From NCBI RefSeq assembly GCF_022539665.2, contig NC_081333.1:12834001-12898000 (forward strand): DNA of 64,000 bases, written 5' to 3'. How positions within the stretch are numbered: position 1 is the stretch's first letter; each line of letters opens with the position of its first letter. The notes below the pieces were generated by a model. That model was given only the letters and a program-made list of their open reading frames with translations. It was not told the DNA's origin and ran no database searches. A program made the position numbers and the translations under genes. The DNA is from Daphnia carinata. Taxonomy: Eukaryota. Shown piece by piece: positions 2,957 to 39,400 of the stretch.

Positions 2957-3109
2957 TTATTTTTATTGGCAAGAAGAACATCTTTAATTAAAAACATCAC
3001 ATATGTTAATGCTAAAAGACATTTCAACCTAAACCTGTTCGAATTCTACTTCAGCATGGCGACTTAATGCGTTGTGCCAGAAAATGATGCTTAGAACTAT
3101 AAAGCTTAC

Positions 3110-23000: not shown

Positions 23001-23733
23001 TGATCTGAAACGCGTCGTTACCTGCACAGCGATACGTCACCTGAACTTGTCCGAATGGCAGTTTGCTTGGAAAAAATTCCAGGAATCCAACATTCACTCG
23101 GAAAAGGAAGATCTGCTTGCGGGAATGACTTGTACCACCAACACATCTCTTTTATCCACGTACTACTTGTTTATTATCAATGGAATCTCTAATAGCCAAA
23201 ATTATTTTTAATAATGAAATTTCTTTTCACAGCATGTTGCAATGGACGCTGGGGAACTCTTCCCACCGGTTGGACAGCATTCACTTCCTCGATGTCATTA
23301 AGAATATTGCATCGGAAACGTTAAAGGGCAGAGATTTTGCCTTTGAATTCCTAGCTTCTCACTGGGATTTGCTAAAATTCAGGTTCTTATTTAATAATTT
23401 ACGCTTTAAATTGAAATTAAACTAAATTTACATGAAATGCAATAACTGGTTACAGATACAATGATCGACCAGACTCGGCACTAGAAATGGTCGCTTCATC
23501 ATTCAACACTTTGTCTGATTTGGAAAAGGTATGCACATTTAAAACAGGCTTTCTGAATTATTCCTTTCTAATAAATAGTCACAAACATTCGTTTATAGAT
23601 GGATGCTTTCAACAGTAATCATGGGGAGGGCGATCTGATTTCGTACCTTTATAGTGTAACCGAGGCCAACATTCAGTGGATGTCGAAACATTATCAAGCC
23701 ATTGACGAATGGCTTCACCAGTTGCTAGTTTAA
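20090..23733 (+). CDS. Aminopeptidase N-like M1 metallopeptidase (APN-4), divergently oriented; signal peptide, no stalk or GPI tail
   Basis: [75 protein letters not shown]. The last exon ends ...NIQWMSKHYQAIDEWLHQLLV* at 23733. Confidence 0.92.
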
Positions 23734-24359
23734 ATTAAAGCTTACATTAAATTATTATAAAGTGTTATGTTTATAAGGAACTTCTATGTACCGACGAAAA
23801 ATTAAAACGAGTAGAACAACAATACACATAAAATTGTTTGCAGCTAAAAAAAAGTGCAAAAAAAGTATTGAAAGGTGTGATCTTTATGCATTTATTGAAT
23901 TTTTAATAATTTAGCTTACACGCCACCTTTAAAGCTGTAAATCATGAAGAAACGAAGGGAGTTCCCCGAGGACGATCGTTAAAAAAATATCACCTGTTGG
24001 AACTACTTAAAAATTATATTATTTACTCAACATTAAACGCTGTCGGAGAAAGTTACAATTTTTTCATCGAAATTGATAGTTTTTTTAATATACCGAACAG
24101 TTGTGCTGTGTAACGCTAGCGCAGTTTTTTATGCTTATTCAAAGAAACTTCAGGTTCCACGTGAAAATGAAACTGGGAAGGCAGGTAAAAACACTACAGA
24201 AAGGTTAATAGTGTTCTTTGAGTTGTTTACGTCGTTCATTTTTCAACTAGCCTTATAGTTTTTGCACCAAACGCCAAAAACGAATAATAGTGTCGCTAAT
24301 AGCAGTTTGTTTTCTTTTGATGTCGAAACGGCTGGTTTAAGGAGAAAACGAATCGCTGA

Positions 24360-24890
24360 ATCGAAATCAGCGTTCAATTTTCATTATACTGTGTGAGTTT
24401 CATCGCATTCCAAGGGATGTCTTTTTTGGCCGATTTTGACAAAAGTGAGAAGGCTATACCCTTACCACTTTTGTCAAAATCAGCCAAATACCTAAATCTC
24501 TTGGAATACGTTAAAAATCACGCACTGTACTCGGAATTTAATGTTGATTCAGGAAAAGTGATTCGTTTTTTTCGTCAAATCAATTGCTTTTGAAATATAC
24601 CTAATAAATGAGATGTAAAACATTAGCGCCGGAACGTGCTAGCGCACAACTATGTTAACCCGTTTTTGGCGTTTATTTTTAAAACCGCAAGTTTTGCGTA
24701 AAAATCAAGTCGATATATGTGATTCCCGTTTAATTTTGAATCGAAATATTGTATTTTTAACCATATCTAGAGTTTGGCGAAAAATGAAAAGGAGTCAAAA
24801 TCAGGTTGTCAAAATCGACAAAAAACGAAATCTCTTAGAATTCGATAAAAGTTACACTGCATTGTCAAAATTAAACGCCGATTTCGATTA
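24360..24890. mobile_element. Foldback/MITE-like repeat with nested inverted repeats
   Basis: Palindrome ttggccgattttgacaaaagtg...cacttttgtcaaaatcagccaa centred at about 24456. 24360-24441 is also inverted relative to 24807-24890. 24683-24790 recurs as a direct repeat at 31275-31385. Confidence 0.6.
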
Positions 24891-26778
24891 TATTAGTGGT
24901 ATTTTCATTAAATCAGCCGTTTTATTGATATTATTTGTTTTATAGAAAAGTCGGGCTTATTATTTTGTCTGGCTTTTCTTTCTATCGAACCTACTTTCAA
25001 GCGCCGTAGGATACTGGCGCGCTAGTTAATAAGCCGCAAAAAGGAGTGATGCCTAAATTAATGGATGTATTGTTGCTAGATGGCAGTGCAGGATAAAATC
25101 AACCGAGAGAAATTGTAAACAAAATAATAGCAGTTTTCAAAAAAAGAAAAAATGCATCAAATGCCGATACGTAGACGTGAGACTCAGTGTCGTAGGAATA
25201 CTAACAGTATGTAGCAACAAATCTAACACTTATTTGCAAACACAATAAGTCACGTTCTGATATAATTGAGAAAGAATGTTTCTTTTACCTACGCCGACTA
25301 TAAGTGTTTGCATTACTCACGGCGGAAATGGTACCCTTACCGAATTAGTTCGAAAGCGCGTTGGCGCAAGTTTCTACCGAACAAATTTATATAACCGTAT
25401 TCGGTTACAACATAATGGACGTGCGCACTGGTGGTAACATTTCCAGCTCATTTTTTCGTAGTAACCTACATTAAACTTTGGGTTTGGAAAACGTTTTTAA
25501 ATGGTACCATACGATGAAGAAGAAGGCTGTAATACCTTGTTTCAAAAATGGAACCATTTTGGATTCGCCCTTTAGCTTTGAGGTAAAAAATATAAATATG
25601 TAAAAAAAGGGAAGGGACTTGTTCGTGTAACTTGAATCGCAACAGTTAGTTGACCACCGCAGTGTGAGCGTAATAGTCGCCACAGGACCCTTTGAGTTTA
25701 CCGGGGATCCCCCACCCGGCTCTCAGCAGTTGCCTGACCCAGACGAATCTGTACCTAGCTGGATGTTTCTTCCAACGGAACTGTTCTCACATAGTCACGT
25801 GATTTACCATCATATCCGTGCATAGCTCGAATATCACAGTGTGGATGGGGGACCATCCATCACAGAAATGATCATCGACAATTCCGCATCTGTCTCCAGT
25901 TTTGGCCATCTGGACGATTAAAGAACCTAGCCAGCTCCATGACGCTTACCACGACTCACATGCAACACGGTGGGACCAACTGCTTGTTCAAGCCGGCTTC
26001 ATGACTAGAATGTGTAATGTAAGGTACTTGGCGATCAGATCTCTCATCCAGCCCTCCTTTCATTCTACACTCAGTCGCCTAATGTACTAGGGAAGAATCC
26101 TTAGTCACTAGCTAGCCCCGACCCTCAAAGAAGATGTTTCATCAACGTTAATATACCGTGAAACGCAGAGTATAAAAGCGCTGCTGCTGAAATCGTCACT
26201 ATTACAGTCAAAAGGGGGAATAATATAATTTTGGAGGTACATCAAAGTAAAATGAAAAAGTGAACTGTATTAAGAAAATTATATTCCTTTTGTTTGCAGA
26301 AACACCAAATGAATGTATTGATTTCCAGATTTATAAAACAAATTTTAATTGTGAGCACAGTACGGAACGCCGCTTGATCCATTTTTGTATAGCCAACTTG
26401 TTCTCCATGGTTGTCCGTTTATTTGGCAACTCCGCTAGTCGTCTCGATCATTTAAGATTTTTCTCATAGATGGTGCCAGCAACCAATGGTGAAACAATAA
26501 CAAATGTAACAGTTGATGGTTGAAAAGATTCACAAATGAGTCATATTGGCCAAGAGAAACTACACTCAATATACAACTTTACCAAGCTTAGTGTCTGTTT
26601 TAGGATTAGCTATTAAGTTTTGTACACATGTAAGACATCCATTAATTCTTGTTTGGAGCTCTCTTACGTCATGGATGAACAGATACCGAAGGAGATTAAC
26701 AGCATTGCTAACATTAGGAGATTTAAGTCCAAGCCAAAGCTAATGTTATCAAACTGAACAGGATTTACAAGGTCATGT

Positions 26779-28296
26779 GCCTTATTAACTTCCCATCCCG
26801 TTTACCGAACGACTAATCAGACAGAAGAAATCACTTTAGTCTTTGATGGCATCTCATACAAAAAAGGTGCTTCCATACTAAGGATGTTGAACGAAATGAT
26901 TGGTCACAAGACTTTCAAGCAAGGGCTAACACGCTATTTGAAAACTCTGTAAGCATATTCCTCCTTTTGTTTAAACTATTCACTTCCAGCCTTGTAAGTC
27001 ATCCTTTGATTTTGTTAACATCCAGAGAATACTGTAATGCTGTACAGCATTATCTGTGGTCAGCATTCACAAGACAGGCAGTGATTAACAAGGTGAAACT
27101 GCCCTATGACATAAAAACCATTATGGAGACCTGGACGCATAACGTTGGCTATCCAGTTGTGACGATAGCTCGCAATTAATCTGCGCGTACGGCCACGGCA
27201 GTGCAATCCCGTTTCCTTTTATACCAAGACAAGAATTCCTCCATCATAGAGGATGGCGAAGTAAATCTATGGATCATCCCACTAACTTTTACGACAGCAC
27301 CCTCTACGAACCAGGAGCCTCAATTGAGATGGTTGCCTCAACTGTCGCAAGCAGAGAAAATAGCGGATTTCAACGTTTTCGCTGACCAATGGGTTATCTT
27401 CAATGTGAATCGTACAGGTAATATATATTTCATAGTCTTTCATTGGACGAAAACTGGAAATGTATGAGTGCAGAAGTTGTAGTCTGATCACGCGCCTATC
27501 GTAAAAATGCCAACGCTTTTATCTTCACATCGCTTTAGATAATCACGAACTAGGTGTATCTGTTTTTTTTATTGCCCAGGATTTTTTCGAGTGAATTACG
27601 ATGAGCGCAATTGGAATTTAATCTGGGCTCAGCTACTTCATGATCCACGACAGATTCCCACTATAAGCAGAGCCCAAATTATAGATGACGCGTTTCATTT
27701 GGCTCGAGCTGGTCTCTTACCATATCAAATGGCTTTTAATTTGGCCAATTATTTGAAGAAGGAAACAGACTATTTGCCATGGAAATCCGCTTTGGACGCC
27801 TTCAGTTACATTGATATGATGCTGGCTCGCTCGCCAACTACATACGAAGCGTTTAAGGTATTACAACCACCAAATGCTCGTTTCGTTTTTTGGGACAGTA
27901 AGAGCTTTATAAATTCATTATCCTTTATGTTTTGCAGCAATTTGCAATTGGGATTCTGACGCCAATGTACCAACAAATGAAAGTTTTAGGCAGCAATAAA
28001 AAAGATCCTGTGGCTCGGCAACTTCTCTCAGAGGCTACCAAATGGGCCTGCAAATGGGATCAAACAGATTGCGTCGAATACGCGCTTTCCGCTTATCGAG
28101 ACTGGATGGCCCAATTAAACGGCTCTGCAGTTATAGTCCCAGCTGATCTGAAACGCGTCATTACCTGCACAGCGATACGTCACCTAAACTTGTCCGAATG
28201 GCAGTTTGCTTGGAAAAAATTCCAGGAATCCAACATTCACTCGGAAAAGGAAGATCTGCTTGCGGGAATGGCTTGAACCACAAACACATCTTCTTT
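26779..28296 (+). pseudogene. Internal genomic (intron-containing) duplicate of APN-4, corresponding to 21636-23152
   Basis: Near-identical to the parent including three introns. It starts and ends mid-exon, lacks the GAMEN/HEXXH region, and has stops TAT>TAA at 27177-27179 and TGT>TGA at 28274-28276. Confidence 0.93.
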
Positions 28297-28300
28297 TCTC

Positions 28301-28630
28301 TGCTAGCCCAATGAGCCAATCTAAAATTTCAGGCCTTGTTCCTTTTGGGAACGGGCAATCAAGATCAGTCATATATTGCTCAAAAGCTTGGTTCCACTGT
28401 ATAGCAGTTGTGTTTCTAAGTAGTTCTCTGTCTTCAATCTTATAGTGGTGGATTTTTTGATCTTCCAGCCACACGAACACACGATTGTGCTTCGAAATTT
28501 CTTTTCATATAGAAATTATGATCTGTTTACTGTGGAAAAGAAAATAAACAATTTTAAAGAACAAATACCGGCTGTGTTTAAAGTATCCGGATTAGGGAAG
28601 CCAAGAGCTTTGCAATTTACGCTTGAACAT
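28301..28630 (-). pseudogene. RTRAF: 5' fragment of RNA transcription, translation and transport factor (C14orf166/CGI-99, tRNA ligase complex subunit)
   Basis: MFKRKLQ/ALGFPNPDTLNTA, intron, then EKKFRSTIV/WLEDQKIHHYKIEDRELLRN...DLDCPF...ILDWLIGLA matches the RTRAF N-terminus. Frameshifts occur after codon 7 and at a tcgtgtg duplication (about 28470-28486); the gene is truncated at the APN junction. Confidence 0.85.
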
Positions 28631-29566
28631 TTTGAACAGATCTGAGTTGAAAAATTTGGAGGCCTAGAATGTTTAAAAAGAAGTTCACAGTATTTCATCC
28701 AGTTGTTTTTTAGTTATTCGAAATAAGAAATATATTGATATTGCAACAATTGAATAAGTCGGGTTGCTGGGTTTCAAGTTTATTTTAAAATCGGCACCAA
28801 CATTACAACAAAATCTGCACAACTAGTACTTGTGACGGCTACAGGGGGACTCTCTACGGGCAGCTCAGGCGCGGGTTTTTTATACCACGCTTTAGCTTGG
28901 GGACGCCAAAGTTAGCGAAGGGACGCTAAAGTTCGCGTGGGGTCAAAGAACAGAAACAGGATGTTACGCGAGAAGCGGGGTCAACTGATTTATGTCCTGT
29001 CGTTGACACCCTGTTGTGCGTAAAAATGGTAATAAAAAAAACGAGACAAGAGATAAGAGAGTCAGTGGGGGGCGGAGGGGGAAAAATCAACATATGCAAT
29101 ACATCACATAGTCTAGTTTATCGTGAGTCCTTACAATATGATATGATAAAAACGAAATGGGTGACTGAAAAAAGCTGGCTTTCAACATGTTCTGTCACGG
29201 TTATGTATGTTAAATATTGAGTAGGATTTGATAAAATAAATACATTGCAATGTATTATGTAATGTGCTTATCATTTTCTCCTTGCATTCGCCGTGATCTG
29301 ATTTTTAATCAAATAATTTTTTTCAAAGACATTTCAGTTATAAAACATATTCAAACAGGTTTGAACAACATTTCTAAAAATTGGAATGTTAATATTCCCT
29401 ATTACTTTTGCAGTAAAAAATAACATATAATGACATAGAATAGATTTTATGTCGAAAACCCACTTCGCAGTGGACTAGATGCACCCTCTTGTAATAAATA
29501 AGCTGAAGCCATAATTAAAATTATGTTTCTAATTTGCCTATCAGTGTTCTATTACAAGAATCCGAG

Positions 29567-30598
29567 ATGGGCAAAGCGAAAACTAACAGTGAAGCCTCTA
29601 CGTCTTCAAGAGTAGTACGAACCGTAGTAACAGAACAACAACTTAAGGACGCACCGATAGTCCAACGCCTAGCTGAGCAGTTGATTTTACCTGAATCGGA
29701 ACCGGAATCGGAATCTGACGTAAGTACAGAAGAAGTAAATGCGGACGTTATTTATATAGCAGAAGCATTATTCTTCTGCCTTACATATTTTGTTACCCCT
29801 GCGGTGCGGACGTTCTTGCGCAGAAAGGAACTTATTTCAAGTGCAGCAATTAATTGCGACTTCGCTGTTATAATGGAAATATTAAGTTCCAATAACGACA
29901 TCGATGGCACTTTTCTCATCGACCCCCTCTCCTACTTGGAGCTTCGCAGCGCAGTCATTGCTAGAAATGGGGTTTGCCATCTCAACCTAGCTGAAGTGAA
30001 CAAAAACTGGTCAGAGAACTTTTCCATTTGGATAAAACTTTGTAAAGGTGTCGGTGACGAAGATAGTGCCACTAATGTGGAGACTGTTCACAACTGCCTC
30101 ATGGAGGGTCTATATCAGTATGCCGTGCCAGATAAACCAATTTTCTGCACGACGGTCACTCATGATGAAAATGCCGCGTTTGGCCTTAGCTTTCTCTTAT
30201 ATAGCTGCCTCCTAAGACATGTGGCTCCGTCTCTAAGGAACTTCTTGATACAAGAAAAACAACTACCTTCATCAACGCCTTTGGATGCCTTCAAAAACTT
30301 GAAATATATCATAGAGCAGCAAAAAACGGACGCAAATTACCTTGCAGACGGTGCTTACCAAAGGGGTGATGCGGTAATGCTGAAGGCTGCTTTTACCGGT
30401 AGGAACGCGACGTGTCACGGTAAATTTTCACAAGTTTTGGGGCTTTGGGAAAAGTTCCTACAATCGTGGGTAAATCTACTAATAACTGTTAACGCAAAGG
30501 AAGCTGCAGGAGAGGTTAAGAATGTTCTCAATGCTATCGTTATCTCTGAGAGATACGCAATGAAGATACTGCCATCAGTGATTCTTTTCCAAATCTAA
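29567..30598 (+). CDS. Intact intronless 343-aa protein with two tandem HEPN-like (Swt1-type) domains; putative RNase
   Basis: Long uninterrupted ORF in AT-rich surroundings. Internal duplication with RNGVCH (29963-29980) and RNATCH (30401-30418) Rx4H motifs. Acidic low-complexity N-terminal segment; TATAAAA at about 29340. Confidence 0.7.
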   Translation: MGKAKTNSEASTSSRVVRTVVTEQQLKDAPIVQRLAEQLILPESEPESESDVSTEEVNADVIYIAEALFFCLTYFVTPAVRTFLRRKELISSAAINCDFAVIMEILSSNNDIDGTFLIDPLSYLELRSAVIARNGVCHLNLAEVNKNWSENFSIWIKLCKGVGDEDSATNVETVHNCLMEGLYQYAVPDKPIFCTTVTHDENAAFGLSFLLYSCLLRHVAPSLRNFLIQEKQLPSSTPLDAFKNLKYIIEQQKTDANYLADGAYQRGDAVMLKAAFTGRNATCHGKFSQVLGLWEKFLQSWVNLLITVNAKEAAGEVKNVLNAIVISERYAMKILPSVILFQI

Positions 30599-30944
30599 AA
30601 TTGTATTTTTTATTTCGGTACACGGTTCGACGTAGCTCGCTGCGACGCGACAATGTTACCTGCTAATCGTTTCTACAAACTATGCAACAATTACTGGTGT
30701 CTATTTACCGAACTCAAATAACCGAATATCGAAGATTGCGAACGAGTAAGTTGAACCTAAATAATCATTTTCCCAACCTAGGGTGAATTTTTTTTTTAGG
30801 TTAACTTGCTCGACGCAGTCGACGTCGGTGCGACAATGTACTACAAAACATCTCGAACGTTATGCAGGTAAGGTTTTGTACAAAATTTTGTAAGAAATCA
30901 AAATTCAATGTCGAATAAAAAGGTTCTGTCCTTAAACATACGCT

Positions 30945-32209
30945 TGTGTATTATTTTCACACCGCAACAACCAATAACGACTTTATATCCAGACATATTA
31001 TTTATACCTAAAACACGCAATCATTCTCATTGCTATTAGAATTACATTCATCATAATTGCTGCAGCCCAAATGGAAAGTTAATAGTAATAATAATTAAGT
31101 TAAGCAAGTAGAATATAACAAAACAATTACTGTATAGTTATATGTTACAAAAATAAAGTAATTAATTTTAAAAAATTACATATTTATATTGCTGGAATAT
31201 GTAAAGTTGTATTTAGAGACTATTAGAATCTGACAGGTAGATGGCGGTAGGTGTAAAAAAGAATTTTTTTTTTTAACCGCAAGTTTTACGTAAAAATCAA
31301 GTCGATATTCGTGATTCCCGTTTAACTTTGAATCAAAATATTGTATTTCTAATCATATCTAGATTTTGGCGAAAAATGAAAAAGTGGGAAGGCTATCGCG
31401 CCCCCCCCCTGAATATTTCTAGTGCATCGCGCTAGCGCCCGTTTAATTTTGAATCGAAATATTGTATTTTTTAACTATCTAAAATTTGGCGAAAAATGAA
31501 AAAATGGGAAGGCTATCGCGCCCCCCCCCTGAATATTTCTGGTGCATCGCGCTAGCGCTGTACCGTACTGGCGCGCTAACAGTGCTCTAAATATTCGATG
31601 TATTTCAAAAACCATTAAATTAATTTAAAAATTAGCAATTTCCCGGGAATAAACATTCAATTATGGGTATCTCCTGTGATATTCAACCAATTCCGACGGC
31701 TGTCAGTTTTTTCCGAAAAAAATATTAAGCCCGAATAAATAAACCCGAATAAATAAACCCGAGCGCCAGTACACTACAGCGTTAGCGCAATGTAGCAGAA
31801 ATACTCGGTGAGTATATTTAGAGAATTAACTAGAATCCTGACCGGTAGACGGCTTATTTCGTTGTGCTTAAAATTTTTATCGAACCTACTTTTAAACGCC
31901 GTCGCGTACTGGCGCGCCAAGCAGTATTAAGTTTTTCTTGTTTCCTTCAAAAATCGCTGATCTCATGAAAAATACACTGTAAATCTTCGTGATTCTCATT
32001 GGTTTAGAATGTAAAGCACATTTACTCATCGATAATCAAACATTTTTGAAAATTACAAAATTGATGGAAAAGTCGGGCTTATAAATTTTGTCGGGCTTAT
32101 TTTTACCCAGCGAATATTTCTGACTTAATAAATCTGACCGGTAGATGGCGAAAGCAGTAAAACAGAAAAAACATTTTTGTCTGTTTTTATTTGGGTAAAA
32201 CGAATTGCC
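30945..32209 (+). mobile_element. Right-hand portion and terminus of an upstream copy of the GGCAATCC TIR family, interrupted by nested repeats
   Basis: 30945-31260 is a diverged direct copy of the subterminal region 38062-38450. It ends in aatctgaccggtagatggcg...gggtaaaacgaattgcc (32131-32209), like the 38417-38550 terminus. No matching left TIR was found in the window. Confidence 0.65.
31318..31557. repeat. 120-bp tandem duplication (2 copies), followed by an inverted repeat 31529-31574 / 31763-31808
   Basis: ccgtttaa(c/t)tttgaatc...ggctatcgcgccccccccctgaatatttct...gctagcgc is repeated at an offset of 120 bp. Confidence 0.88.
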
Positions 32210-32439
32210 ATAAATCTATGGCAATCCGTTTTATATGGCAATCCGTTTTACATAAAAAAAAAAAAAAAAAGGCGGGAAAAAAAAAATCGTACTTTTTTCT
32301 TTTTTTTCTACCCGTAGCCATCTATCAGTCGGTTTCGTTATTACAGGCATGTAAGCAATTTCAGTTAATTGTATCCCATTAGCAGTTAATTGAGTAGCGT
32401 GGCTGGAGAACAACGCTTGGCTGGAGGAACAATTGAAAA

Positions 32440-33610
32440 ATGGATAAGATAATAAAACAAAAAAATGGTAAGTATAAACATTATTATATTGGTTTTCAAT
32501 GATTAATTATTGTTTATTAGATCAAATTATGAAGCTGCAGGCCCAGTTATTGGAACAACACAAAATATTAGATAACAAAGCTAAGGATCGTAGGCCTAAC
32601 ACGTAATGATTCTATTTATTTGCTTTTATTCATTCGTGTTTTGTAGCTCAAATTTTGAGTCTTCAAGCTCAGCTAGGGGAAAAGAACAAATTGGAACGGA
32701 ACAGTTTCCAAACAGTGAAGGAGGTTTTTCAAAACTCATCTCTAACTGAACGTAAGGATGAGTTGGCATTAGGCGAACACAGCCAGGTACCTAAAGTTTT
32801 CAAATAAGAATTCAAAATAAGTATAGAATTTTAAAAAACAATTATTTATTGCTTAGTTATTCAGTCCACCACCTGACAGTGTGTTAAATTTAAATTCTGT
32901 TAGTGCTGCACTAAAAGAATCGTTAGTAATAAGCTCATGCAGTGAAGGAATTGAACAATTGTGGGAACGTATTTGGGCCGAAAATGGGTGTGGTACAGAA
33001 ACCCAGAAATGGCACAAGTTCAACATGAAACATGGATTAGGTACTTTTCGGTTTTTTGTCTATTGAAAAAGTATTTTTAATGCTATTATTTTGCATTCAC
33101 AGAATTATAGTGGGGGATCAAATCAAGTCTGGAAGTGTTACAGGATGGAAGAGTGAGCCTACAGATGAAAAAACACTGAGAGTGCATTACCGTAAGGTGT
33201 GAGGTAAATTAATAGAGTAATGCAAATTGCCTAATGAGAAGTACCATCTTGTGTTAATGAATCCAGTACAACAGCAATCCTTTATAGTTCTGTCACAGCT
33301 AGAAGCCTCAAATAATTCTGCTTCTCTGTCTAAAGAACAACTTGTCCTTTACGTTCAGAGTGTTGGGGAAACTGGGTACTTAAATGGCCCTAAAGATGTT
33401 TTAATTTTGCTGCTATTGCAGAGATGAACATCATACATGGACTCTTTAGGTATGAAAGGATTTTTCTTCAAATAATTTTGAATTTATGACGAAGAATTTC
33501 TCCTCCTTTTGCCAACCAGGTCTTATCTACCAAAAAAAATTTTATCCAATAGGAAAGGATTTTCATGTACTGGGAACACAACTATCAACAATGCAACATT
33601 CTACAGGTGC
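32440..33610 (+). pseudogene. Spliced gene or gene fragment of unknown function inside the TIR element (coiled-coil-like N-terminal exons; 3' exons appear degenerate)
   Basis: Series of short GT-AG introns (32469-32520, about 32590-32646, 32787-32856, 33041-33102) joins MDKIIKQKN-DQIMKLQAQLLEQHKILDNKAKD-...QILSLQAQLGEKNKLE...LWERIWAENG. No recognisable family; intactness is uncertain. Confidence 0.45.
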
Positions 33611-34572
33611 TAGTTTATCATTCAAGAGCCTTATACAATGAAGTTAATCTGCAATTTGTATGTCCTTTCCCAAGCTTCCACCAGAAGTTGAATCTATGAG
33701 TCATGTAAGTTCCATGATCAACAATTGATGTGTTTAACGGTGTTGTTTTCTTTTCTCAATATAGGTTAATAGTAACATTGGATCTGAAAAGATTCTTGGT
33801 TGGGGCAAGACACTGAATAAATTGTATTGATTGGATGGATGACATGACATTGCTATACTTAATTCGGATTCCCCAGACGGTATTTGATATTTAAAAAATT
33901 GAAGTGCATATCTGGGCTCCCTTCTTTTCTGAAGCCCCGTTTCCCCTTGACACGTAAATAAGCCCGTAGGGGGTCATGCCCCTACTGTACGGTATATATA
34001 AAAACAACATATACCGAGGTTTGGAGGGCTCTGGCCGGAAAGGGGACGTGGGGTGCCGCTTCGTCCGATGATGTGTTCACGGAGGGTGACGTGGCTGCCC
34101 ACAAATCCGAACTAAAGGTTAATCGCTCCTGTAAAAATGTTCCAAATCTTCAGCTCTTCTTCCGGCTTCTCTTAGCCAATCACCGGGTAATCTCCCCGGT
34201 GGGTCAACAAGGCAGTGTCTCCCCCTGCCTGGGTTGACGGCAACTTTTGAAAGGGCTATTGTGCCTTTTTAAAGTTGCAAAAATAATTGTAATGTGCAGA
34301 GAATTGTCAATAAATTTTTTTTATAAAATGTTTTTTGCAAAATTTTTTTCTTTCATTGTCTGTGTTCGCTTTGTTCACACATTACATTTATCAACTTTTT
34401 TTTTATTTATCTTGCTCAATTCATTTTTATGGTTTTTGCCACCGTTGTATCGCTTATCTGTTAGTATTCAATTAGTATTTATTACACTTCTTGAATTCTT
34501 GAACTTAGACAAGGAACAACGTGTGATACCTGGATATTTTCTGAAGTAATTTTATACTTGTACATTGTTTTA

Positions 34573-34640
34573 CTGGTATGGGAATCGATCCCCAGACATT
34601 CAGCGTGCAACGCCGATGCTCTAACATTGAGCCACGAGAT
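34573..34640 (-). ncRNA. Degenerate tRNA-like element (tRNA pseudogene or SINE head; Ala-TGC-like loop)
   Basis: The minus strand reads GTGGCTCAATGTTAGAGCA-TCGGC GTTGCAC GCTGA-ATGTC-TGGGGATCGATTCCCA: A-box, anticodon arm and B-box-like T arm, with a poor acceptor stem. Confidence 0.6.
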
Positions 34641-34745
34641 ATATATATATCATATTATATCTATTATCGCAAATCATATGTTATAGTCTAGGATGTTTAT
34701 GTAGTCTTTCACAAGTATATATTTATCTTTGTATAGCTTTCATAA

Positions 34746-34816
34746 GGTTCATAGCTCTGTGGTAGAGCATTCAGCTGCGGTAACTGTTACCCTGGGTTCA
34801 AACCTTAGTAGATGCA
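34746..34816 (+). ncRNA. Degenerate tRNA-like element at the palindrome centre
   Basis: TAGCTCTGTGGTAGAGCA (A-box) ... CTGGGTTCAAACCT (B-box) at tRNA spacing. Confidence 0.55.
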
Positions 34817-34897
34817 TAAAGATCTACGTTTCAATTTTATTCAAAGTGTAAATGCAAGTCCGCAAGTGACTAGAAAAAAGCTAACCTGACATCATAT

Positions 34898-34962
34898 GAT
34901 TCATGGCTCATTGGTATAGCATCGGCGCGGTATGCCGAACATCCTGGGTTCGATCCCTGGAT
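34898..34962 (+). ncRNA. Degenerate tRNA-like element, the inverted counterpart of 34573-34640
   Basis: TGGCTCATTGGTATAGCA-TCGGC GCGGTAT GCCGA-ACATC-CTGGGTTCGATCCCTGG: A-box, 5-bp anticodon stem and canonical B-box. Confidence 0.6.
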
Positions 34963-35819
34963 AATAATTGAATGCTTACAAATAAACGATAAACCAATGG
35001 AAACAATGCTTACCATCAAAGGTGGCATAAACAATAAAGGTGAATTGAGCAAGCTAAATAAAAAAAAAGTTGATAAATGTAATGTGTGAACACAGACAAT
35101 GACAGAAGAAAATTTTGCAAAGATAAAAAAAAATTTTATTGACAATTCTTTGCACATTACAATTATTTTTGCAACTTTAAAAAGGCACAATAGCCCTTTC
35201 AAAAGTTGCCGTCAACCCAGGCAGGGGGAGACACTGCCTTGTTGACCCACCGGGGAGATTACCCGGTGATTGGCTAAGAGAAGCCGGAAGAAGAGCTGAA
35301 GATTTGGAACATTTTTACAGGAGCGATTAACCTTTAGTTCGGATTTGTGGGCAGCCACGTCACCCTCCGTGAACACATCATCGGACGAAGCGGCACCCCA
35401 CGTCCCCTTTCCGGCCAGAGCCCTCCAAACCTCGGTATATGTTGTTTTTATATATACCGTACAGTAGGGGCATGACCCCCTACGGGCTTATTATGAGTCA
35501 AGGGGAAACGGGGCTACGGAAAGGAAGGGAGCCCAGATATGCACTGCAAATTATGAAAAATTTAATACCGTTTTTAATTGGGAATCTGAATGAAGTATGG
35601 AAATTCCATGTAGTGTATCCAAACATAATAATTTATTCAGGACCTTGCCCCAAACAAGAAACCTTTTCAGATCAAAATTTATTGTTCATCTATAATAAGA
35701 CAATAAAACACCATTAGGCATAAAAACTCTTAATTCATATATATAGTTCATACCTTACATGATTCGTGAGTTGATTGCGAGCATATTCTTCTGTCAGAAG
35801 CTTCAGTAGAGACATTTAC

Positions 35820-37700
35820 GATTTTCGTTTACGCTCACCATGGATGTTGGTAGACTAGACATTTAAAGTTAAGACACTTTGCCCAATTCCAACAGTTTTG
35901 ATTCTTACTTGTAAGTTGTTATTGCACGAGAATGCAGCGACGAAATCCGCGGTCTTTTTGCTGTTGACAAAAAGGGTAGTCTTGGCACCACCGAGATCTT
36001 GTAAAACTTCGATCAGCTTAGCTCTCTTATCGCTTTTCGAGCACTGAAAAAATAGCTGTTCAACACCCGGATTGGTGCCATCGACAATGTCTGTTATGAC
36101 GAATATGTAGTCTTCCATGTACGTCGCAGCCAGCTCTTGCACTTCATCTGGGAATGTAGCCGAAAACATACAAACACGACGGATTCCCTACAGAGAAACA
36201 AATAATATTACATCAATCAAATCTCATACTCAAAAGCCATCGAGGACATACTTTCGGATGCATCGTTGGATGATTGAAAATTTTTTCAACATTGGGACCG
36301 AAACCCATATCAAGCATTCGATCAGCTTCATCCAAAATTTAAAACCTGACTCCCGAGAAGTCAAATACTTCACGGTCGAGAAAATCATTGAATCGCCCCA
36401 CGGTTGCGACAAAAATATTGCACCCAGCTTGAAGATTTGACCGCTGATGGCTCGTGAGAGTTCCTCCATATATAATCACAGACTTTAAAACCGAACTGTA
36501 GGAGAATTTATACGCCTCGCGGTGAATTTGAATGGCCAATTCACGAGTGGGTGCGACAATTACAACTTCTGGCTTTTGCCCCATGGCATGAGACGCACCA
36601 ACAACACCTTGTTCTAACAATATGTTCATAACCGGTACCAAGTACGCCGCCTGCATGAAAAAATGTAAAATTTTAGATGATTTAATCAACGAATATCACG
36701 AAGGGTTTGTTGAGTATCTTACATGCAATTGGACCTTTTAGTAGTCGCAATCACCGGCATGCCCACTAAAAATTACTTTTACTTCAACTTACCCAGTTCA
36801 TACCGACCCATTCGAATCAAGTCAGTACGAGGGCATCAAGGTTTCAAAATTACACAGTGTTAATTAGTTGGATTACCGTTTTCCGGAGCCCATGACCGCA
36901 CAAGCAATTAAACCTCTTTTGGCAAGAATAACTACAACTGAAGCTTTCTGAACAGGTGTTGGTTTTATGTAGCCAGAATTCTTAATGTTTTGAAGTAGTA
37001 GTTGATGCAGGCCGGCTTCTTCGAATGATGTTATGTATTGAAGTACATCTTTTCCTGTAGCCTAAAGCAAGCACAATAGATATTTAAAAAAAAAATACAG
37101 TTTCGAGAAATGGCGTACATGGAGGACGACTTTATCAAAATTGTTAAAGCTTTCCCTAAGACAATGCCCTTAAACAGTTCCTATTCACCGCATGTCACAG
37201 CTTCTGGAATGTATTGCTCATGTGGCTTTCCATCTTCTGTCAATTCACTGAAGAGATTCGGGCAGCCTATCGAGCTGTGGTCAGCTTCATTACACTAGGA
37301 GTAAAACAATGAACACTGGAACATAAATAGTTTTGTGAAGATGTAATTGGTGTTTACATCATAACAGTTGCTGCCACCAATGCTTCCTCCTTGAGGAAAA
37401 TCCCTTGCTATATTGCCCTCTTCTTCGTTAAAAATGAGCACTAAAAATGATGTTTTTTTTGTTTTTTGTTTATCTCATGGCAGGTACGACTTTCACCACC
37501 GCCGCGACCCTCTTGCGGACAATCCTTCGAGACATGTCCCCCTTTCCCATACTATAAAAAGCACCAAGAAGTTAAGTTCGAACACATGTTTCGATATTTT
37601 CATCTTACTTTGTGACGTCAACGGACCACTACCGCCGCCTCCACCATCTTGTGGACACTTTGGCAAAATGTCTTTCACACTGTTAAACAAAACCATAGTT
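35820..37700 (-). pseudogene. vas: vasa/DDX4-like DEAD-box RNA helicase pseudogene (intron-containing, 3'-truncated)
   Basis: Decayed CCHC knuckles and Gly-rich N-terminus (...PKCPQDGGGGG, GGHVSKDCP). Q-motif SGYIKPTPVQK, GSGK, VAPTRELAIQI, IYGG, VATVGRFNDF, VRF*ILDEADRMLDMGF (in-frame TAA at 36339-36341), MFSATFPDEVQ, TTNIHG, then truncation. Knuckles plus this core favour vasa over PL10/belle. Confidence 0.85.
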
Positions 37701-38344
37701 TAAAGTAATCACACTAGGAATACAAGAAAACACTTACCTAGTGACCTTGGACAGAAAAAATGTAGAACAGAATGAAACAAATAAGATTATATAGAGAGGT
37801 CAAGAAGTAAAATCTAGCGAGGACGGTCTATCTAGCGAGTAAAGGTAGACAGCAGACTACACGCGTTAAGCCAATCTAAAAATATGCCTGAAAAAAAACT
37901 GTCCGATGAGCCACGGTTTAAGGCGCCTCTTGTGGACGCAAAAGTCATTACGAGAAATTTTATCCGCCACAAACTAAATGTTTTTAAACATTTAAAGTAC
38001 TTATCCAAATGAAAATTTAACTTAAGAAAATTTATATGTTTGAGTAATATAAAGACGTTATTGTGTATTATTTTCACATCGCAACAACCAATAATGACTT
38101 TATATTACTCAAACATATTATTTATACCTAAAACAAGCAATTATTCTCATTGCTATTAGAATTACATTCATTATAATTGCTGCAGCACAAAATGGAAAGT
38201 TAATAGTTAATAGTAATAATAATGAAGTTAAGTAAGTAGAATATAACAAAATAATTATTGTATAGTTATATTTTAATGAAATAAAGTTATTAATTAAAAT
38301 AAATAATAATTCAGATTCAATTCAGAAATAATAATAATTCAGAA

Positions 38345-38409
38345 AATTTTCTAAATACTACTTTACGAATTCTAGCGGCTAGAATTCGTAAAGTAGTATT
38401 TAGAAAATT
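38345..38409. repeat. Perfect 65-bp palindrome (32-bp arms, 1-nt spacer) in the right subterminal region of the TIR element
   Basis: aattttctaaatactactttacgaattctagc g gctagaattcgtaaagtagtatttagaaaatt. Confidence 0.95.
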
Positions 38410-38464
38410 AAGTAGGAATCTGGCCGATAGATGGCCATAGCTGTAAAAAAGAAAAAAAAGGCCG

Positions 38465-38519
<55 letters not shown>

Positions 38520-38590
38520 GGGGGGGGGGGGGGGGGTAAAACGGATTGCCATATACTATAGCAAGAAGTGTTTGTTTGTCTCTTAATTTA

Positions 38591-39400
38591 ATGGCGAACA
38601 TAGTGAAAACCGAAAGTGGCATTGATCTTTTACAAAGATTTTCTGTCAGGCCGAAACTTGTTGGGTTGCAAGTAGAAGTCTTTGGAGAAAATGGACCACT
38701 GCCCGGAGACGTGATAGAGATCAACGAAAAAGATACAAATTTTAAAACTATCCTGTTGACCCAGTGGATTATAAAATGTATACTTCCTGCAGCTTGGAGA
38801 GGTGTGCAAATTGGCGGGCTTGAGGTGGGAGTGGTGTTTCTGTCTACTGATCATCATTTTTCGTCATTAAACTTGGTCACTTTGCTTGAGAGAAGGTTGA
38901 AAAGAACTCTTCGGCAATGTCAGCAACTTCCACCTGGCTCAGGGCTTACTATGATGAAAGAAATTACCAAAGATTCTCTAAAGAGACTTTCCTTATATGA
39001 AAGCTTTTGTAAAACAGAGCTCCTTTTTAACTTCTGTTCTACCAAAACCTACATTCTGTCTCATTCTCAGTCTTCAGTGGTGATAGTTGATAGCCTTTCT
39101 GCATATTATTGGGAAGACCGATTGTCATCGTCAACCATGCAGAGCCTAGACAAATATTGCCAATCTCTTCTGCAGTCTCTTATTGAAAAGTTGAAACAAA
39201 CCAATATTACCATCATATACACTGTACAGCAATTCCTCAGAGAACTTCATGAAAGAGAAAGTAGTGATGCTCAATTGTTTATTTATTCCCTTTCTATAGA
39301 AAATCCACTGCAAACTGTAATTCACGTAGAAGATAGAAGGACTGGTAGTAAATTTTCAAAGAAAATTGAGTCTCTCAAAGGAGACTTGTTGTTAAAATAA
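38591..39400 (+). CDS. XRCC2: DNA repair protein XRCC2 (RAD51 paralogue), intronless
   Basis: ESGIDLLQRF, PLPGDVIEI, KCILP..GGLEVGVVFLSTDHHF, VVIVDSLSAYYWEDR are characteristic XRCC2 segments. Confidence 0.9.
   Translation: MANIVKTESGIDLLQRFSVRPKLVGLQVEVFGENGPLPGDVIEINEKDTNFKTILLTQWIIKCILPAAWRGVQIGGLEVGVVFLSTDHHFSSLNLVTLLERRLKRTLRQCQQLPPGSGLTMMKEITKDSLKRLSLYESFCKTELLFNFCSTKTYILSHSQSSVVIVDSLSAYYWEDRLSSSTMQSLDKYCQSLLQSLIEKLKQTNITIIYTVQQFLRELHERESSDAQLFIYSLSIENPLQTVIHVEDRRTGSKFSKKIESLKGDLLLK

Follow-up and report, generated by a model that had tools for sequence, protein, structure and literature searches.

A two-domain HEPN protein of Daphnia carinata, member of a large Daphnia family and candidate single-chain ribonuclease

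HEPN proteins of Daphnia have already been met in two computational surveys. As described in the available text of the first, a Swt1-family HEPN domain, predicted to be active and closer to bacterial versions, has expanded to 46 copies in Daphnia, for which defensive endoribonuclease roles were proposed, and Swt1 itself is listed as an inactive HEPN dyad (Anantharaman 2013, PMC3710099). In Table S2 of the second, intramolecular HEPN dimers are listed for twelve AlphaFold clusters, of which four are Daphnia proteins (A0A162SAE3, E9GBY7, E9GQ59 and E9HS57; Yoon 2024, PMC12165695); as far as the available parts of that paper go, these dimers were by-catch and outgroup there, and the word 'Daphnia' is absent from section 3 of the main text. 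Here, we describe an uninterrupted open reading frame (ORF) of 343 codons in a 64,000-nucleotide stretch of Daphnia carinata DNA (contig NC_081333.1, positions 12,834,001 to 12,898,000; hereafter the window). Judging from sequence comparisons, it belongs to a large paralogous family in which every member that carries an organism name comes from Daphnia. Family and architecture have thus both been seen computationally before, and the ORF adds a further member. Our reading, which we hold at about even confidence, is that this paralogue forms an intramolecular HEPN-HEPN dimer and is likely an RNA-cutting defence effector.

An earlier note on this DNA, made from the letters alone, had described the ORF as an internal duplication that keeps R-N-x-x-C-H in both domains. 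Both statements hold. All segments quoted there are present, the two halves align with 31 identities over 117 residues (26%; E 3e-12 in a single pairwise comparison), and the motifs RNGVCH and RNATCH occupy residues 133–138 and 279–284, respectively. When the protein was shuffled 200,000 times, 38 of the shuffled sequences contained at least two R[NDH]xxxH motifs. Conservation is given below as counts over the filled rows of an alignment of 69 sequences picked for the two domains (16–57% identity to the ORF, one row 14%), and this row selection as well as the profile-derived matches bias the figures upward. The parts of the ORF are as follows:

29567–30598, forward strand: uninterrupted ORF of 343 amino acids, double-HEPN protein (full-length relatives at 46–55% identity).
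29567–29740, forward strand: N-terminal tail, amino acids 1–58, predicted disordered (predicted local distance difference test score, pLDDT, below 50 over amino acids 1–56).
29741–30112, forward strand: HEPN domain 1, amino acids 59–182 (domain profile match, model, structural matches).
29858–29860, forward strand: Asp98, conserved, start of helix 2 (D in 65 of 66 rows).
29963–29980, forward strand: motif 1, RNGVCH, with R133, N134 and H138 (R in 57, N in 60 and H in 66 of 67 rows).
30170–30550, forward strand: HEPN domain 2, amino acids 202–328.
30284–30286, forward strand: Asp240, conserved, counterpart of Asp98 (D in 66 of 68 rows).
30401–30418, forward strand: motif 2, RNATCH, with R279, N280 and H284 (R in 67 of 68, N in 36 of 68 and H in 66 of 67 rows).

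The model predicted for the ORF protein is all-helical and confident (pLDDT 95.5; predicted template modelling score, pTM, 0.93). Its top structural matches are a HEPN domain and Cas13a, the latter covering both halves of the model in one superposition, albeit with a modest Z score; the model of HEPN domain 1 additionally matches AbiF and further HEPN chains. Features that mark HEPN membership are present, namely an all-helical domain of ~100–120 amino acids and a conserved Rx4-6H motif with a polar residue after the Arg. A near-invariant Asp is found 35 and 39 residues upstream of the respective motifs, in a context other than Ex3[KR]; in the case of Asp98, it may serve as a helix cap or as an accessory catalytic residue. 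That the protein has the HEPN fold, as the earlier note had supposed, is close to certain. Because the pTM of 0.93 refers to a two-domain chain, the relative orientation of the domains is also predicted with confidence, and this, together with the single superposition on Cas13a, gives indirect support to an intramolecular active site, that is, a pseudo-dimeric site between the two domains, which we hold to be highly probable. These domains occupy the folded part of the chain, and no sensor domain is present, as had been noted. Foldseek comparison of the model with the PDB and with viral models returned no match at E 0.001 or better, and a sequence search of the PDB with the ORF protein gave no meaningful match.

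A resemblance to Swt1- and DZIP3-type HEPN domains had likewise been noted. It is present, but weak by profile: the ORF does not match the Swt1-like HEPN profile PF18731 (curated cut-off 27.5 bits), one of five close members reaches E 0.024, and three of 105 relatives score 14.9–16.5 bits, below the cut-off. The ORF is Swt1-like by resemblance only and not a member of PF18731. In the ESM Atlas, scores of 0.85–0.91, which serve as leads only, pointed to clusters named HEPN_Swt1, HEPN_DZIP3 and DUF4559 on minority shares, the last of which we take to be the CXorf38 family.

The R and H residues expected to form the active site are among the most conserved. R279, H284, H138, D98 and D240 are the five most conserved of 287 alignment columns (97–99%; median 31%), which bears out the expectation that R and H are kept among homologues. 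Of the 69 rows, 53 have intact copies of both RxxxxH motifs, whereas 13 retain only the second and three only the first; four of these 16 rows have a gap at one motif. In the family as a whole, N and H are retained in domain 1, where R is sometimes lost, while R and H are retained in domain 2, where position 2 varies. The two motifs hence drift in a complementary manner, which fits one shared asymmetric site. Las1 requires three of its four R/H residues, according to the available text of the report (10.1101/760058). A clade of nine relatives (P0064, P0072, P0082, P0087, P0088, P0089, P0095, P0102 and P0107) has lost the R of motif 1 but retains the H of that motif together with a complete motif 2, and these proteins form a natural test case for the rule that a HEPN site needs three of its four residues.

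The size of the family became apparent in two steps of searching. With the single sequence, four full-length matches at 46–55% identity were obtained among 2767 candidates, the named ones being from Daphnia magna and D. sinensis; a profile built from the ORF and these four then retrieved the representatives of 105 clusters (E 0.001 or better, with 63 of them at 1e-10). Organism names were looked up for 20 of the 105 clusters; six were named, and all six are Daphnia. In an iterated single-domain profile analysis of 110 sequences (the 105 clusters plus the first five sequences, several being fragments), 67 have two domains, two have three, 40 have one (e.g. D. magna XP_032789254) and one has none. 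In two Daphnia species, annotated paralogues lie on contigs of chromosome scale, and a further search placed three D. magna family genes on one contig. A0A162SAE3 (P0122 in our set) shares 35% identity with the ORF over 283 amino acids (E 1e-56), and profile-profile comparison with a more distant subgroup gave 100% over 277 columns. Since whole proteins of 311–370 amino acids are called on ENA/JGI contigs of up to 7–10 kb, some of which could be transcripts, absence of coding introns is suggested to be a family-wide trait. Just 5' of the ORF (29520–29566), a pyrimidine-rich tract ends in CAG ~21 nucleotides ahead of the start codon and could be the acceptor of an intron in the 5' untranslated region; an AATAAA is found 3' of the ORF at 30914.

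In a domain tree of 140 domains, which is a quick one from an unfinished search and only 129 columns, both halves of the ORF group with their respective counterparts in Daphnia paralogues. In P0041, P0097 and P0051, the protein's own two halves pair together instead in this tree, which suggests that domain pairing arose more than once in the family. Fused forms of 602–2000 amino acids were absent from 7990 candidates scored, which is weak evidence. Scans of viral and metagenome contigs, prokaryote genomes and phages, sensitive to close matches but not to distant bacterial kin, confirmed no related locus, and neither did plasmid scans of the same kind, in which two rows at E 8 are attributed to chance. 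With at least 105 clusters, and with Daphnia members in two published surveys, the architecture is neither rare nor novel, contrary to what had been implied. The literature searched does not contradict the narrower statement that characterised animal proteins with this architecture are not known, although uncharacterised ones are in print: no experimental study of Daphnia double-HEPN proteins was found there, coverage being incomplete especially for subscription papers, nor any text mention of six family accessions.

How does the ORF compare with the described systems? With the Daphnia expansion of the Swt1 family (Ava_2192-type), as presented in the available text of PMC3710099, it shares the Daphnia-specific expansion, an intact Rx4H, the lack of a fused non-HEPN domain, weak HEPN_Swt1 profile matches among its relatives and the prediction of a defensive endoribonuclease. 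In contrast, the eukaryotic members are termed 'solos' in that text, which does not describe tandem domains. We infer that the present family and the 46-copy set are identical. Among the dimers of the second survey, A0A162SAE3 carries a long extension at its N terminus and is without the R of motif 1, whereas the ORF retains both motifs. The nuclease lobe (HEPN1-HEPN2) of Cas13 and Cas13an is similar in that it has two diverged HEPN domains per chain, a predicted composite site and asymmetric halves. However, the ORF protein is eukaryotic, measures 343 rather than 429–1400 amino acids and has no REC or CRISPR RNA-binding lobe, and its halves stem from a duplication inside their own family according to the domain tree. 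No array-like repeat family is present near the ORF, an Rfam scan of 23700–38600 gave no gathering-level match but only sub-threshold hairpins, and a tRNA scan found no tRNA. Membership in the type VI CRISPR effectors was rejected, as the two HEPN domains fill the folded chain and array-like repeats are missing. Unlike Swt1, in which a dyad listed as inactive is fused to a PIN nuclease, the ORF protein has no PIN domain and both its motifs are intact. Finally, the intramolecular HEPN pairs in Table S2 of Yoon 2024, as far as available, include DUF4209/C6orf70 proteins from sea urchin, midge and fungus as well as a Mytilus protein; these are alike in architecture but belong to separate sequence families, none of which appeared among the named matches here.

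For LbuCas13a, the available text describes that one His attacks through the 2'-OH while both Arg and the other His stabilise the intermediate, that the products carry cyclic phosphate and 5'-OH ends, that tRNA loops are preferred and that substrate is recruited by basic accessory surfaces (10.64898/2025.12.03.690598). In the model of the ORF protein, the two domains would pack like HEPN1 and HEPN2 of Cas13, placing R133/H138 and R279/H284 in one groove. By analogy with other HEPN enzymes, one His would act as general base and the other motif would position the RNA, and cleavage would be metal-independent and yield 2',3'-cyclic phosphate and 5'-OH ends. Fusion of the domains would make homodimerisation dispensable and leave the halves free to specialise. 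Lacking a lobe for sensing or for guide binding, the protein would depend for its control on expression, a narrow choice of substrate (structured RNA such as tRNA loops or viral RNA), the flexible N-terminal tail or a partner. In our estimate, the family probably consists of active ribonucleases (RNases), activity is somewhat favoured for this copy, and a role in defence falls a little short of an even chance.

The ORF is located in a block (~23750–38500) that contains short inverted-repeat elements and duplicated gene fragments. The host-gene copies nearby are indeed pseudogenes, as had been noted:

26779–28300, forward strand: truncated, intron-retaining copy of the aminopeptidase segment 21636–23156 (95.4% identity, 70 of 1524 columns differing; two in-frame stops; ERAP1_C match).
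35855–37700, reverse strand: broken DEAD-box helicase fragment (Pfam DEAD, E 2.7e-13; in-frame stop just before the DEAD motif).

The latter adjoins a long inverted repeat (33741–35713; 713 nucleotides, 89%) with an inner arm pair of 369 nucleotides at 99% (33957–34325 and 35124–35492), likely a young non-autonomous terminal-repeat element nested within an older one. Short coding-like pieces with intron-like gaps at 32400–33800, four of which were scanned without a Pfam match, are probably a further decayed gene copy. A direct repeat (30944–31263 and 38061–38453; 79–87%) has its copies 7.1 kb apart, the second just upstream of a 269-amino-acid ORF at 38591, which is presumably XRCC2-like, a name without Pfam support in our scan. 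The sequence TAGATGGC occurs at 25077, 31238, 32142 and 38428 and is possibly a promoter motif. Several aminopeptidase-N-like genes form a tandem cluster on both strands at 3100–23750; this naming is based on translations and on the one ERAP1_C match in the 26779–28300 copy.

The earlier note had placed the ORF in a mobile island, and it might accordingly be the selfish cargo, a toxin or addiction module, of a recently inserted element. The 15-kb block is rich in repeats and gene fragments, and copies of one short repeat family flank the ORF on both sides (24672–24790 and 31264–31382). However, the ORF is the sole long ORF in the block, 11 block fragments scanned with Pfam gave no transposase-like match, and no terminal repeats of an element bracket it, the only inverted pairs on either side being AT-rich and 18–23 nucleotides long. 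Its GC content (0.43, and 0.43 at third codon positions) is within the range of seven other ORFs of the window, both its domains branch with Daphnia paralogues, and such paralogues reside on chromosome-scale contigs, three of them on one contig. Cargo of this kind is a most improbable explanation, and recent horizontal arrival was rejected given the host-like composition and the nesting among Daphnia paralogues; a Helitron-type capture is possible. It had also been argued that an ORF intact among pseudogenes suggests selection or recent arrival. This is not supported, since 465 of 2000 simulated neutral copies are still open at 4.3% divergence, that is at the level of the pseudogene, as compared to 3 of 2000 at 20%; intactness thus reflects long-term selection in the lineage rather than selection since arrival here. 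In our reading, the region is intergenic, rich in repeats and prone to duplication, a setting expected for an ordinary birth-and-death paralogue.

Several properties of this copy weigh against it being an active RNase. The protein has a pI of 5.2, as compared to 8.0–9.7 in nine relatives; the net charge of its core is -5, tied second lowest of 59 (median +7), with domain 1 the most acidic among the 59; it has lost seven basic positions common to at least four of six close relatives and has acquired several acidic residues; and the N-terminal tail carries a mostly acidic 12-residue insertion that is missing from the four closest relatives in the alignment. Judging from its residues, this unusual acidity may have weakened the copy. 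It could then be a weakened, inactive or early-decay duplicate within a family of RNases, one that came to lie amid further duplicated pieces and whose basic RNA-engaging surface is lost, or an RNA- or protein-binding decoy. Its end branches, which are the longest or among the longest relative to the closest sisters in both domain subtrees, the pseudogene fragments around it and the 23% of neutral copies that remain open at 4.3% divergence would agree with decay. Against this, the copy keeps the six R/N/H residues of its motifs as well as both Asp despite at least 45% divergence from the nearest relative, hardly any neutral copy stays open at 20% DNA divergence, and P0037, P0027 and P0028 are comparably acidic members. 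Faster evolution of the copy was not significant in any of 12 relative-rate tests (p 0.13–1.0). We consider a weakened copy unlikely. An active RNase could also have an endogenous job in the turnover or processing of RNA, be it under stress, during development or in the germline, instead of pathogen defence. Las1, Ire1/KEN, C6orf70 and Swt1 act in core RNA processing according to the available text of PMC3710099, and the ORF has no sensor domain for a pathogen signal. Yet those core proteins have been retained throughout eukaryotes, in contrast to this family, which is confined to one lineage, has expanded greatly and diverges fast (16–57% identity), a pattern which the same text ties to defence; an endogenous job seems quite improbable. 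Finally, the active sites could form between chains, the protein being switched on by oligomerisation. This would solve the problem of self-toxicity, single-domain relatives exist, and HEPN nucleases mostly dimerise between chains, as stated in the available part of PMC12165695. The pTM for the two-domain chain, the single Cas13a superposition spanning both halves and the complementary motif drift, which matches one shared site, all speak for a ready-made pseudo-dimer, and family members passed the dimeric-HEPN filter of Yoon et al., as far as that text is available. Sites between chains are very unlikely.

Taken together, our data are consistent with an intramolecular HEPN pair that likely cuts RNA in defence. 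A defensive RNase role in Daphnia has been a standing prediction since 2013, and a structure search in 2024 met the family again, as Cas13-like dimers, without follow-up. With a core of 288 residues, both motifs intact and a confident model, the prediction is readily testable in vitro, in an animal that is a leading host-parasite model, although the basic paralogues would suit such a test better than this copy. A bolder and doubtful extension is that water fleas have turned a bacterial-type HEPN into an arsenal of sensor-less, single-chain Cas13-like nucleases, a crustacean counterpart of RNase L, in which pairing occurred more than once. Dozens of paralogues, each an asymmetric HEPN dimer with its own RNA preferences such as tRNA loops or viral structures, would then serve antiviral or cell-suicide immunity. 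If true, these would be the smallest HEPN RNases that occur naturally as a single chain, and the fusion that gave rise to Cas13 would have a direct parallel in animals. If active, the family would reveal how a HEPN site assembled from the outset is kept in check in an animal when no sensor is present, and would offer a minimal scaffold for studies of asymmetric HEPN catalysis.
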